Shown here: one piece after another, positions 3,533 to 60,100 of the stretch
How positions within the stretch are numbered: the stretch's first letter is position 1
How the letters are laid out: every line of letters begins with the position of its first letter
NCBI GenBank assembly: GCA_003344405.1
Contig: NOWV01000147.1
Location: forward strand, 124,001 to 188,000
From: Trichoplax sp. H2
Taxonomy: Eukaryota
DNA length: 64,000 nucleotides
Reading direction: 5' to 3'
Notes under the pieces: model-generated
What the model was told of the DNA's origin: nothing
The model's input: only the letters and a program-made list of their open reading frames with translations
The model's database searches: none
Program-made: the position numbers and the translations under genes

Positions 3533-3725
3533 TACTGTACAGTGTACAGTACACTGTACTGTACAGTAGAGTCGAATAAGCCACGCCTGTCCATCACTCT
3601 ACGTACTGTAGAGTATCGGGTAGTCTGTAACAACCTCGGACACGTTACCGTATCGGCTCGTCGTTACAGCCTGTTACCATGTGAGCCGATACGCTGACGT
3701 AAACACCAGTGTTGACCGTTGAAAT
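3533..3725. promoter_or_regulatory. Promoter-like island (TACWGTA cluster, CpG-richer, TGACGT motif) with no identified coding gene beside it
   Basis: Same composition as the islands upstream of ATAD3, ALG3, UBL5 and DDX19: tactgtacagtgtacagtacactgtactgtacagta at 3533-3568. Confidence 0.45.
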
Positions 3726-5243
3726 TTCACTCATAAAAAGCTTGACGCTAGAGGACGCTGAAACGGATTGCAACCACCCACGTCCCAATGACGAACCACT
3801 GACGCATGTCACTCAACAACCAACTTTCTTCATCACTCCATGTCAACAACAAGTCTGCAAAGATGATTGCAGCTGATAAACTACCATGACCTAAAACTAG
3901 TACTACTGTAGTACTTGCTACCGGGATCAGCATTAATCAACAGCTCTACGACTTCTAGATACTGTACATAGATATCCTTCCATGTGTCAATGGATGTTAT
4001 TCATTGGGTGCTTGCCTGCTCATGGGCTAGCATCGCTGCATCTGTCGAAAGAAGTGTCGATGTTGATCTCCGTTGCTAAAACTTGTATGTCTATATTTCA
4101 TCTCGACAAGCTGATAAAGGCTGTGATTGATTTCTTTCAAGCTTAGCCGACAGTCCATTTTCAACAAAATGATCAATAGTATCCAGCATTTGGTAATGAT
4201 ATTTTACTACCTACAGCATTGCTGAAACTGCAATATTGGAGGTAGTAAAATGTATGATGGCAAAATGCCAGAGACTAAAGATCACTCCATGACACATATC
4301 TATCTGTTATCATGCTTTTTCAACTGCAGAGAACTGAAGCAATCATTGGTGCCATCAACAATAACGCTCCATGATATACTGATATGGTACTGTACTTTAC
4401 TTGGCCTGGTGAACGCCTATATCTGCTATATACTATACAGTACTGTATGTCCATTGAGTGTATTTTATCTAGGTCCAAGGTGGGAATCTTGGACAATTTC
4501 CAGACTTGCAGTCGCGCCAAAGTACCCTACGATCTAATATGTAACAATAATCAACAGTAGTATACGGTAATACATTAGGCGAATCGGTTCATGTTCAAGA
4601 TGGCGCACAGTAGTTCCATCACTGCGATCAATATGGAAATTGATGCTATCGATGCTCGATGCTTTCTATGTAGATACAGTAGATCTTTGGCAATCATATT
4701 TCTATTTACTAATGCACACGAATCGTTATGATGTGTCAATTCTTTGCATACCTATACAGCATTGCTCATCCACTCATGATGACTGCAGTGGACTGCATCA
4801 AGACGGAATAAATTGCCTTTCTCACTTCATGGACCGACTTGCAAATGCATCAATGTTATCTAATGACCAGACAGATAAAAATAAAAAGGAAAATAATCCA
4901 TTGCTATTCAACAAGATCAGATAAGGATTCCTCCATTCAACAATTCTTTATTATCAACAACCAATCAAAGTCTTTACGCTTCTTAAGTTATCTATGTTGG
5001 AATGGCCAGCCATCACTGGTCTAGTTTTGTAGGCGTTCCATTTGGGCCGATCAGCACCGCCCCATCGACATAATCGCGCGATCAAAATACGATTGCTTTT
5101 AAATTAAAATTAACGACTATATCACCATTTCTGCGACTTGGCGTGATTACAGTAGACCGTGTATACCGAAAGCTGGAACAGACTTGGTTCTGTCAAAGTG
5201 CTGTATTTCTACAATTTCCTAGTACTGTCATTACTCTTGTTTG

Positions 5244-6193
5244 ATGAAAATGATGATGTATCCACAAGGTACTGCCGTGAATTACCAATCTAATATGTAT
5301 CCTGTGGTAGGAAATTCTCCACTATTTCTTGCACCAGCTGAATGCCTAAATTCAGTAGTCGATCCCCATTTGCAGATGGATCAAGCGCAAAGGGATTCGC
5401 TTCCATTTGTATCAGGTCAGTCAAAAATTCTAATGCCATTGCCTGATTTGTTGTAGGTCGTTAGAAAAGGCAAATGCTGTCCAACATTTCCAATGTTTAC
5501 TCATTCAAGTCAATCCATGAGTGATGAGATGATCACGGTTTACTTGTTATGCAGGTGTTCGACCTGTTCATTCTCGTAATAGTAGAAAAAGCGCAGCGCA
5601 TTCTTATGGATTAATTAATTAATTAATTAATTGTTAAATAAATAAATTAAAAAGACAGAACTTGCTCTAAATTTCATTTCTTCCTTGTTCTGGTATATAT
5701 GTTATACATACAGATGGAAACTTGTGGCAAAATCGACAAATTCGCAGAGCGGTACCGCCTGAGTACCTTTGTCATCTATGTTTCCAGAAAGGCCACCTCA
5801 TCAATGACTGCCCTTGGGTAGATCTTCTTTTGTTTTACCTTTCCAAATTAGCAGGAATTGCAAGGTCTTATGCGTTGCTATTAACGATTCTTCTTCTAGG
5901 CTCCGCCAAAGAGTAAAGGGCTTACGCCTTATCAAGGTACAAAGAGATGTTTTGGTGAATATGCATGCGCCAATTGCAAGCGTAAATGGATGAGCGGCAA
6001 TAGTTGGTCCAACGCTGGTCAGACTTGTAAAATATGCGGGGAAAGAGTTTACCCTCATCGACAGAAACCGCTAGACCGATCAGCCTATAGTGGAAGCGAA
6101 TTTTGTCCCAGGAAAGAACATCCACGCCACTTATGTGAAATGTGTATGCAACTGGGCGATTACTGCCGCAAGAATAAATCGATAGGACAGTAA
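5244..6193 (+). CDS. ZCCHC24: Zinc finger CCHC / 3CxxC-domain protein 24
   Basis: Exons 5244-5415, 5555-5575, 5714-5817 and 5900-6193 join in frame via GT-AG introns. Motifs [52 protein letters not shown] and [19 protein letters not shown] match ZCCHC24. Confidence 0.9.
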
Positions 6194-8057
6194 ACGATAG
6201 GAACTATAAAACAGCATCAAGCGACGACTCAACGCAGCAAGCCTAATGGTAGTCAACGTATGCTGTATTTTCTAGTTTCCCATTTTTTGCTTTTGATTTG
6301 CCTAGCGTTTAGCACTATTCATTGTCTACCTCTACAATATGATATGACTATATATATTTCTTATGCATGCTTGAAAAGAGAATTTGTTACTGTATTGCAA
6401 TGCCTATGGTTTATTCCGGTTTAAATGGTGAATTTATTGTTAATTCTTAAAATAGTAAAAAGAGGATGGCAAATTGATGCTTTTAAAATCAAACATTGAT
6501 ATGAAACAATTCGAGCATAGTGATGTACCGTGGTAGGGAGCGAAAATACGTCTTGATTCTACTATTGTATTACGTGAAAACAAATTGAAGTTTATACTCT
6601 GACAAGCGTACATAATGTTAGCCTTGGCAATTTAGTATTTCTACTAGTAAATTTCTTCAGGTAGATTTCTCAAGGTAATAGTTGATTAATTATAGTGCAT
6701 AAAGATGCAGGTATATCTTTCATCAGTAGGAAGTATATATATAGTCCTTTAATACCATTATTTGAGAAACGCATTTTTCAGAGCTTATTTATTATATTCT
6801 CAACTGAACATCCTGTTTACCCTTTGTCGATCGTGTTGTGCGTAATTCCGATTTGAAATATCAATGCATTTACTGGAAATTTATTTCAATTCAATTTTAC
6901 CTTTGCTGCAATTTTCAGTTATGTAATAAATTGAGGCTACAATGGTTAACTGCCCATATTTATATTGGAATATTAGTGCAATGATTTAGTTTTGCTTAGG
7001 TATAGAATACCTATCGATGATCATTAAATATTTCATTGAATTACTTAAATTGCGTTTTATACTAGTTGAATAATGCGACATCAAAAGCGACTACGCAGCT
7101 GGCTGCGTATGTCAAGTAGGATATCCTTTTTTAAATTGGACTCGCAAAGATTCTTTGCATCAAAAATGATCTTATCTAACTAAAATCGAAGAATACTAAC
7201 TGGATTATGTCGCAACCAAATTAATTACTTTATCAATCTAAGTATAAAAAGGCTAACCAAGCAATGATAGCAATTGATATGTGTGCTGGCTGCATAGTGA
7301 GCAGATGAATTTTCATTCAATAGTTAGTTTTCATATCGCATAGTGAAAAGCGCAATTGTCTAATGTTATATTATAGATTGGACAATGCCGCCGCATCAGT
7401 AGAATTGAATGATTTTCTAGTTCCGATTAATTGTAAATTGTTCCTGTGTTCGTCACAAATTGGCGCAATATGGCGTGAGAGACTAACGTTCAATTCTATG
7501 CTGATAGCCAAACCAATGTTCATAATGACTAGATAACGCTGTGCAATTACTTAGACTCTATGTTCAACGTGATTTATCAATTCAATACCTTGCAATAGGA
7601 GTACAAGAGGTTATTCAAGTCAGACCGACGTCTGATACAGTAAACTTGCCAAGATTAGTCATCATCCAATGTTTGCGAAAGATCCCTAATTAACTTCATT
7701 ACTAGTGGCTGTTAACTACTGTATGCGTATATCCGTTTACACGAGCCTGCTATACGATGCCATTCTGTACAACATTTGACACAGAATTTCAATCTAATTT
7801 ATAGCCTAATATTAGAATAATACGCATAAAAAGCGAAACGACGACAAAACCTTCTATAGAGTAACGCACATTGCTCTACGAAGAATTACGCCAAGCTCAA
7901 TCATAAGTACTATCGATTTATTGCATTACAAAGTATAATAATTGGATCTTGTAATTCGTGTGATACCTTTTCTGTTGGGTAAGCGAACGACGAATAAAAA
8001 AGTGATTATTATTATTATTCTCAATTATAAATTATACGTTTAGATATTGGCCGTAGA

Positions 8058-58759: not shown

Positions 58760-59569
58760 AAGCATGCGATTCAGATCCGTCAAGGCTAAAATAGAGACGC
58801 TACAGTAGTAAGTGCAAGTCCCTGAGATATCCTATAGATCAGAGATTTGAACTACCACTACCGTTGGTCTATGTTTTTGAAGCATGCGATTGAGATCAGT
58901 CAAAGCTAAAATAGAGATGCTACAGTAGTAAGTGCAAGTCCCTGAGGTGTCCTATAGATCAGATCATCAGAGACTTGAACTACAACTACCGATGGTCTAT
59001 GTTTTTAAAGCATGCGATTGAGATCAGTCCAGGCTAAAATAGAGACGCTACAGTAGTAAGTGCAAGTCCCTGAGGTATCTTATAGATCAGATCATCAGAG
59101 ACTTGAACTACAACTACCGTTGGTCTATGTTTTTAAAGCATGCGGTTGAGATCAGTCTAGGCTAAAATAGAGACGCTACAGTAGTAAGTGCAAGTCCCTG
59201 AGATATCCTATAGATCAGAGACTTGGAACTACCACTACCGTTGGTCTATGTTTTTAAAGCATGCCGTTGAGATCTGTCAAGGCTAAAATAGAGACGCTAG
59301 AGTAGTAAGTGCAAATCCCAGAGGTATCCTATACTGTATAGATCAGATCATCAGAGACTTGAACTACAACTACCGTTGGTCTATGTTTTTGAAGCATGCG
59401 GTTGAGATCGGTCAAGCCTAAAATAGAGACGCTACAGTAGTAAGTGCAAGTCCCTGAGATATCCTATAGATCAAGGGACTTGAACTACAACTACCGTTGG
59501 TCTACAGTATGTTTTTAAAGCATGCGGTTGAGATCAGTCAAGCCTAAAATAGAGATACTACCGTAGTAA
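58760..59569. repeat. Tandem array, ~120-135-bp unit, 6 full copies plus 1 partial
   Basis: Copies begin aagcatgc at about 58760, 58880, 59008, 59136, 59257, 59392 and 59518. Core gctaaaatagagacgctacagtagtaagtgcaagtccctgag. Confidence 0.95.
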
Positions 59570-59939
59570 TGACGAATGATCATAAGACAAGCACAAGCAG
59601 AAATGGGCGAGTGTGTTCGTTTTTTACATGGCGACTAGGAGCATTAGCATGCTGGCTATCCGACCATGATTTACTTCTCAAAGAGACATATTGACTCCCC
59701 ATTTGTATTCTCCACTGCCAAAGAGGGAGAGACATGGCGTTGTCTCCTCGTGTGTACTCGTTGGTGTATATCCATGTAAGGACTTTTCTAATGTTATGAT
59801 TTGGCAACAATTTCGCTCTCTCCATGCGAATGCCAAATTGTTGAAGATTGTCTAGACCGGTCAGAGGTTCCGTTCCAACCGCATACCAACCGATTCAAGT
59901 CACGTTCTCCGCTTCGAGGGTCCTTGCGTCTGTCCGGTT

Positions 59940-60100
59940 CAGGTTCAAGTTCAGAATTAGGGATCCGCCAACGGTCGGTCCAGCTTACAGTACTCTCCAC
60001 GGCGAGTGTACAGTACACAGCTGTGTACTGTACTGTACACTGTACCGTTACAGTGTTTACTACAGTACCGTATCGGACCGCGCCGTACCGGACCGGATAA
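59940..60100. promoter_or_regulatory. Promoter island with TACWGTA/TACCGTA cluster and a 26-bp perfect palindrome
   Basis: gtacagtacacagctgtgtactgtac at 60008-60033 and GGACC pentamers at 60074-60097, about 500 bp upstream of the 60595 ATG. Confidence 0.6.

Follow-up and report, generated by a model that had tools for sequence, protein, structure and literature searches.

How did a single seven-base word come to be scattered so densely through the DNA between and within the genes of a placozoan? We analyzed a 64,000-nucleotide stretch of the genome of Trichoplax sp. H2 (contig NOWV01000147.1 of GenBank assembly GCA_003344405.1, positions 124,001 to 188,000; hereafter the window, in whose own coordinates all positions are given). 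Throughout it occurs the heptamer TACWGTA, that is, TACAGTA or TACTGTA. The first-pass annotation of this DNA took these heptamers for footprints left by departing Tc1/mariner transposons and proposed that promoters had been built from them. After weighing the evidence, we assign a probability of about one-half to the reading that a Tc1-type element left the heptamers behind as excision scars, on which replication slippage and point decay acted later. The evidence for this reading includes the way in which individual heptamers appear, as whole 5-bp gains at a TA dinucleotide.

The window contains 121 TACWGTA sites, compared with a mean of 13.14 (standard deviation, 3.40; maximum, 22) in 100 dinucleotide-preserving shuffles of the same sequence. 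Duplication within arrays accounts for about 5 of the 121, and the number of independent sites is therefore about 116. TACWGTA is the most over-represented 7-mer under Markov models of orders 1, 2, and 3, which predict 13.4, 23.0, and 35.5 sites, respectively; 7-mers were ranked with these low-order models, as a maximal-order model masks TACWGTA because its sub-words are also enriched. Both the shuffles and the Markov expectations thus bear out the claim that the heptamer is abundant in the window. Among the 32 strand-collapsed heptamers of the form TA-NNN-TA, TACWGTA stands alone at 9.0 times expectation, followed by TACSGTA at 3.55 times (19 sites versus 5.4), with all others at 1.9 times or less. 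The heptamer can accordingly be described as a palindrome with a free center (W in 121 sites, S in 19). The annotation saw no heptamer in the exons that it reconstructed, and near absence is borne out: confirmed coding open reading frames (ORFs; 8,355 bp) hold 1 of the 121 sites, where 15.8 would be expected under an even spread. Decay of TACSGTA to TACWGTA at CpG was considered as a source of the heptamers and rejected, given that the sister products TACCATA and TATGGTA are not enriched (17 versus 13.8 expected).

The sequence itself has been described before. Wang, Zhang, Meyer, and Bao (2010, Biol Direct 5:18, PMC2871265) reported that pentanucleotides are the commonest microsatellites of Trichoplax and that ACAGT accounts for 78% of 7,233 pentanucleotide loci. 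They placed the ACAGT loci upstream of genes (54% within 1 kb and 85% within 5 kb) and proposed a transcription factor binding site. The heptamer is this published (ACAGT)n microsatellite, with the same sequence, the same organism, and the same gene-upstream bias as given in that paper, and neither the descriptive observation nor the link to gene-upstream DNA is new. By our own arithmetic, the 5,640 loci of Wang et al. in about 95 Mb would predict about 4 perfect runs longer than 12 bp in the window; we find 5 such period-5 runs, the longest of 15 bp (3 units). Unlike us, Wang et al. counted only perfect same-phase runs, which they treated as a slippage repeat and possible binding site; lone TA-bounded heptamers, mixed orientation, and 5-bp births at TA are absent from the main text of their paper. 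An excision-scar origin of the ACAGT motif was not found in the literature that we searched, and so far as that search reaches, it is unpublished.

The published view, in which an ordinary (ACAGT)n microsatellite grew by slippage and was kept near gene starts as a predicted binding site, is one that we consider rather unlikely for these heptamers. It has in its favor the microsatellite class and upstream bias reported by Wang et al., as well as the recovery of ACAGT, alongside ACGG, as a repeating motif by a network trained on Trichoplax Micro-C data (Chimaera preprint, bioRxiv 10.1101/2024.11.14.623548). How it fares depends on how the units arise, how they are oriented, and how they decay.

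The window has only three internal repeats that can be used as paralogue comparisons: a hairpin at 34.1 kb, a 128-bp array, and an array at 45.6 kb. The hairpin consists of perfect 32-nt arms (34054-34085 and 34098-34129) around a 12-nt loop and contains GTTAAC. Its arms differ by exactly CAGTA at a TA (CTAC-TA-AGTACT versus CTAC-TACAGTA-AGTACT), such that the right arm has TACTGTA at 34128..34134 and the left arm has TA. In the 128-bp array (58760-59569; 6.4 copies, higher-order period of 377, intergenic), the sequence where units meet is GGTC-TA-TG at five of six junctions; at the sixth, between units u6 and u7, it is GGTC-TACAGTA-TG, with TACAGTA at 59503..59509. The array at 45621-46118, likewise intergenic, has units of about 100 bp and a higher-order period of 201; its unit a2 carries a CTGTA gain at a TA (45745..45751) that is absent in a1, a3, and a5 and that a4 (45946-45952) shares through higher-order duplication. 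Unit a5 in turn has TACTGTA at 46111..46117, where a2 and a4 have TA. All three alignments on which the annotation had based its direction of change (34128, 59503, and 45745) are thus confirmed as 5-bp differences at TA. No function is apparent for either tandem array, and their value here is that of internal paralogues.

By our own tally, about 5 of about 10 indel events in the three repeats create TACNGTA at TA. None of the inserted 5-mers copies adjoining sequence, and the gains of 5 bp fall at pre-existing lone TAs outside repeat runs, as in an excision footprint. Slippage, in contrast, needs an existing run of same-oriented units, and these gains arose at lone TAs without an adjoining template. 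No heptamer site in the internal repeats arises by point substitution, which also speaks against an origin by slippage or by selection for a binding site, whereas in the arrays the motif is lost by single-base substitution (to TAGAGTA in u5, to TACCGTA in u7). At 34128 and 45745, a gain is favored by parsimony, as it requires one event instead of two.

To our knowledge, the only process that writes exactly CWGTA at TA is the excision of a cut-and-paste transposon that targets TA. If such an element was at work, most heptamers would have come into being in one step, when 5 bases (CWGTA) were added at an ordinary TA, and would then have decayed by point mutation. The putative element would duplicate its TA target, have CAG...CTG ends, and leave by a cut with a 3-nt stagger, as do elements of the Tc1/Sleeping Beauty type. 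The two CAG overhangs would anneal with a central A-A mismatch, which repair would resolve as either A or T. Where promoter DNA is free of nucleosomes, repeated hits would produce small clusters, and replication slippage could then extend those runs that happened to be same-oriented. Excision footprints described so far are rare and each mark a single donor site; unlike them, the heptamer is the top over-represented 7-mer of the window, with no donor element in view. The canonical excision footprint of Sleeping Beauty is TACAGTA/TACTGTA (PMC6943129), and the heptamers resemble the footprints of this family, as described there, in the identical 7 bp, the duplicated TA, the net gain of 5 bp, and the existence of longer two-ended variants. 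The view that the heptamers are an unusually large-scale variant of such footprints, with the transposon still lacking, is partly supported.

One of the gains is polymorphic. Contigs from four public runs, of which X1, X3, and X6 are DNA runs, were aligned to positions 33500-53499; 37 polymorphic indels were found, and our statements rest on the 12 of the 37 that were listed. Two of these 12, at 34128 and 35079, are of the CWGTA type. At 34128, a lone TA in a non-repetitive context, one X3 contig (depth of 33.7 of 62) is missing exactly the 5 bases, which X1 and X6 both have. We take this indel to be real because its junction 31-mers must exist in the reads, and a gain is the more parsimonious direction because the other hairpin arm is also without the insert. 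At 35079, X1, X3, and X6 have one extra TGTAC unit inside a (TGTAC)n run (35080..35091), a whole-unit length polymorphism of the kind that slippage produces. The expectation of polymorphic 5-bp indels at TA thus holds for one clean gain at a lone TA, and the other case is explained by slippage too. The hairpin lies about 120 bp upstream of a heptamer cluster at 34.3 kb, and contigs from all three DNA runs break within it (34054-34129). In run X6, the a2 heptamer is without its C (45747) in two contigs, which read TATGTA for TACTGTA; either a scar has decayed here, or an array copy has been aligned to the wrong unit.

Gains of this kind could also come from another form of repair that writes CWGTA at a broken TA, for example, polymerase-theta-type templated insertion via TA microhomology, although we regard this as improbable. 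Every clean gain does have a heptamer nearby: one at 34157 is 29 bp from 34128, an in-unit TACAGTA is about 60 bp from 59503, and 45745 has two, at 45532 and 45554, at a distance of about 200 bp. Templated repair could yield the +7 and +12 variants that also occur in the arrays, and it makes a resident transposon unnecessary, which suits a genome reported to be poor in transposable elements (TEs) (PMC2871265). However, it offers no reason why this particular 5-mer should be copied in about half of the indel events, it leaves the origin of the first copies unexplained, and it makes the exact identity with a known footprint a coincidence. Moreover, the remaining listed polymorphisms of 5 and 7 bp duplicate local sequence in tandem rather than copying it from a distance.

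The arrangement of the units also bears on slippage. Sites with a neighbor within 20 bp number 28, versus 8.8 in 2,000 random placements (maximum of 23), which is a clear excess; within 100 bp, the excess is modest (60 versus 37.8), with a simulated maximum of 64 that is greater than the observed number. Units abut in eight doubles, three triples, one chain of four, and one chain of six. Among the 17 abutting ACWGT pairs, 8 are same-oriented and 9 are opposite. Mixed orientation is predicted by random repair of a central mismatch and is not predicted by slippage; neither the head-to-tail order nor the broad spread of lengths of a slippage repeat is seen, the longest perfect run being of 3 units. 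On the other side, the six-unit chain at 3533..3568 (TA followed by CTGTA, CAGTGTA, CAGTA, CACTGTA, CTGTA, and CAGTA), between the end of a GPCR-like gene and the next gene, can also be read by Tandem Repeats Finder as a period-12 repeat of 2.8 copies, which favors slippage. A further difficulty for slippage is that 61 of the 121 sites are without a neighbor within 100 bp. These isolated sites are intronic and intergenic, and the intronic copies include those at 35546 and 35854 in ALG3 (RNA joint 35448-35675).

Longer variants had been read as scars that retain sequence from both transposon ends, and two such forms exceed expectation. The predicted two-ended scar TACAGTGTA/TACACTGTA occurs 10 times versus 0.8 expected (12-fold), and 10 of the 25 occurrences of CACTGTA have a TA directly in front. 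The full two-ended form TACAGCTGTA is present in one copy, at 54209..54218, versus 0.09 expected; another form, TACATGTA, is taken up below. Another 9-mer variant, TACAATGTA/TACATTGTA, is found 5 times versus 1.7 expected (19584, 25710, 44852, 45710, and 45911); two of these are array copies, and three abut canonical units. The proposal of a second transposon family with CCG ends is weak, as a single substitution separates TACCGTA from TACAGTA in the 128-bp array. Another motif, ACCGTATCG, accounts for three of the TACCGTA sites, and several TACSGTA copies lie inside chains of W units.

Flanks and decay speak to the binding-site part of the published view. The flanks of the 61 isolated sites resemble those of generic TA. 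We rejected GTAC as the true core of the motif, as the G/C flanks that suggest it are due to abutting units, and isolated sites have near-generic flanks. Relative to a background built from motif-masked sequence, the excess of one-mismatch variants is about 78 to 140 and that of perfect copies about 102 to 109. This near equality fits steady birth and neutral decay, not strong per-copy selection, and having about as many one-mismatch derivatives as perfect copies is unlike the result of purifying selection acting site by site. In favor of a binding site, a palindrome whose center is free resembles the site of a dimer. An initiator element is a further conceivable identity, given the CAGT core of the Drosophila initiator. 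Heat-shock-element arrays are made of contiguous 5-bp nGAAn units in inverted arrangement, and the chains are like them in consisting of contiguous 5-bp units in either orientation; unlike the alternating heat-shock elements, the orientation here looks random. We know of no protein that binds the heptamer. A present-day function and an origin as scars are mutually compatible.

Several results weigh against an excision origin. Within the 64 kb, we found no pairs of TA-CAG...CTG-TA with terminal inverted repeats (TIRs) (0 pairs 40 to 6,000 bp apart with at least 15 of 21 positions matching), no transposase among the 17 Pfam families matched by 147 ORFs (at least 60 amino acids, E value of at most 1e-5), and no dispersed repeats. 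For the genome, Wang et al. (PMC2871265) reported a TE content of 0.13%, 11 Mariner/Tc1 fragments, no expressed or active TE, and few miniature inverted-repeat transposable elements. A polymorphic gain implies recent activity and is therefore in real tension with the report of no active TE. The unit comparisons raise points of their own. The direction of change at 59503 is uncertain, since the oldest units of an array may be those at its edge. TACTGTA at 59332..59338, which occurs only in unit u5 of the 128-bp array, inside CCTA^TAGATC, is a gain of 7 bp instead of 5 bp and hence non-canonical. Also non-canonical is the +12 event at 45706 in a1 and a3, which have a 12-bp insert, CTCTACAATGTA, at the TA where a5 has TACTGTA. 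The gain at 35079 is accounted for equally well by slippage and by a further scar, the two being indistinguishable, and the other 5- and 7-bp indels among the 12 of 37 listed (42968 and 41932) are plain tandem duplications unrelated to the motif. Among the longer variants, TACATGTA is not enriched (2 versus 2.7 expected). With the heptamer written as TACAGTA, a following TA is commoner than a preceding one (TACAGTATA/TATACTGTA 23 times, TACTGTATA/TATACAGTA 10 times); this 23:10 bias of TACAGTATA over TACTGTATA is not predicted by random mismatch repair, and neither a scar origin nor slippage explains it. Finally, all counts come from one 64-kb window and three internal repeats.

Further findings bear on a possible donor. 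Wang et al. (PMC2871265) described three Mariner/Tc1 elements with complete ORFs, single-copy and without TIRs, which counts against a donor; however, a single-copy intact transposase is also the expected appearance of an active element of very low copy number. Trichoplax and Placozoa are unmentioned in two surveys of Tc1/mariner and pogo elements (PMC7325037 and PMC7386202), and PMC10027918 yielded nothing of relevance. No joint between an element-occupied and a scarred haplotype was found among the 15 of 48 contig joints listed. The 25 longest of 42 inverted repeats were considered as resident elements and rejected, being AT-rich noise, cluster-to-cluster matches, or the 34.1-kb hairpin. On balance, the excision-scar interpretation of the annotation keeps the support of the footprint's form, the gains at lone TAs, their polymorphism, the mixed orientation, and the 9-mer scar, and it has no donor element in the window to show.

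If heptamers are excision scars, their distribution would reflect where the element landed, for which open promoter DNA would be a candidate; such a record of accessibility, and the exaptation of scars as regulatory sequence that the annotation also suggested, are hypothetical. The clusters named in the annotation were all found, with coordinates off by 1 to 2 bases at most, and their placement at gene starts stands for four of them. The cluster at 25692..25802 lies about 380 bp upstream of an ATAD3-like start codon (about 26183, plus strand) and has five canonical heptamers, in mixed orientation (A, T, A, T, T), together with the 9-mer variants TACAATGTA and two TACACTGTA. That at 34244..34351, between CFAP107 (minus strand) and ALG3 (plus strand), has five heptamers and the perfect run ACAGTACAGTACAGT (34324-34338). 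Four heptamers (53114, 53134, 53425, and 53466; 53114..53472) occupy the divergent intergenic region between a UBX protein gene (minus strand) and a DEAD-box helicase gene (plus strand). The cluster at 59986..60072, about 530 bp upstream of the Met of the first long ORF of an ankyrin gene, comprises five canonical heptamers, TACACTGTA, and TACCGTA. To describe promoters as built from scars is nonetheless an overstatement, as the clusters are small, with 2 to 6 units across about 100 to 150 bp, and half of the sites are isolated. Further groups of units are a three-unit chain at 24973..24989 (orientation T, A, T); a palindromic double unit, TACAGTACTGTA, at 25471..25482 within the 22-nt palindrome CATTGTACAGTACTGTACAATG; a cluster at 42310..42452 that includes the four-unit chain TACAGTACGGTACAGTACAGTA (42431-42452); and one at 46218..46236, in which TACTGTACGGTA is followed by TACTGTA.

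The clusters could also be imagined as the decayed TIRs of a promoter-seeking transposon, similar to the Mutator elements of Kim et al. (2025, Nature 642:1097, PMC12221973), who described a loop-anchor and promoter motif inside Mutator TIRs at placozoan housekeeping promoters. Like that motif, as presented there, the heptamer is short and repeated, is concentrated at Trichoplax promoters, and has proposed ties to a DNA transposon and chromatin architecture; in addition, the clusters are partly palindromic, and ACCGTATCG and (RCYGG)n tracts adjoin three of them. We hold this explanation to be very improbable. The Chimaera preprint equates the insulation motif that Kim et al. found on transposons with the ACGG repeat and keeps ACAGT separate from it. 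The summed depth of contigs reaches about 13 times background in the bin of the 34.3-kb cluster (X1, X3, and X6) and about 5 times background in that of the 42.3-kb cluster, and these deep bins are fed by contigs of many other loci. The flanks of these contigs are unrelated, with a loose-end agreement of only 0.43 to 0.6, and the clusters are therefore not copies of a repeat, whereas decayed TIRs would be expected to share their flanks. The window is also without dispersed repeats, and neither a lone 7-mer in generic flanks nor a single 5-bp gain amounts to a piece of a TIR. Contig joints between 34.3 kb and 42.4 kb were rejected as rearrangements, as they reflect other-locus contigs placed on shared cluster sequence.

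Two further sequences stand beside the clusters. A second period-5 tract, (RCYGG)n, adjoins three of them (25802-25841, about 42470-42510, and 60073-60100); one example reads ACTGG GCCGG GCTGG ACCGG GCCGG ACTGG ACTGG ACTGG, and its units differ by transitions only. This tract may be kin to the loop-anchor motif of Kim et al. (2025), the transposon-borne ACGG repeat. Also found repeatedly near clusters is the motif ACCGTATCG(G), at 3642-3700, where its copies make an 18-nt inverted repeat, and at 25849-25860 and 60066-60076, and GTATCGG/CCGATAC is present 10 times versus 3.0 expected. The TACSGTA, ACCGTATCG, and (RCYGG)n sequences of the window may themselves represent the Mutator-TIR motif.

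The window is gene dense, with ordinary animal gene content. A 755-amino-acid ORF at 586-2853 has 99% identity to a Trichoplax adhaerens protein. The genes identified encode a GPCR-like protein with a somatomedin-B domain, a C2H2 zinc-finger protein, a ZCCHC24-like protein, ATAD3, CFAP107, ALG3, a folate-receptor-like protein, a UBX protein, a DEAD-box helicase, and an ankyrin protein. A 164-bp direct duplication of 99.4% identity (30386-30549 and 30901-31064) has its second copy just after a 20-N gap (30881-30900) and is probably an assembly artifact at that gap.

Extrapolated from an excess of about 105 copies per 64 kb to a genome of about 100 Mb, the heptamer would number on the order of 10^5 copies per genome. 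By our own arithmetic, maintaining about 10^5 scars at steady state would need about 10^-3 to 10^-2 fixed scars per genome per generation, assuming mutation rates of 10^-9 to 10^-8, a rate that is high but not absurd. We tentatively propose, as possible rather than probable, that an element of very low copy number is still active in promoters and that its roughly 10^5 scars make up the dominant "microsatellite" of the genome, co-opted as a promoter or insulation motif.

Where the ACAGT motif comes from has been a puzzle since 2010, and the motif now figures in models of placozoan three-dimensional genome folding. Even if the excision-scar idea should fail, the 5-bp births at TA would still need a mechanism. 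If it is true, Trichoplax, which is cited as nearly free of mobile elements, carries a large hidden record of transposition. A microsatellite class and a promoter-associated motif would then gain a defined mutational origin, by insertion rather than by point mutation or slippage, and the density of scars would be a historical map of landing sites, probably of chromatin that was open in the germ line.

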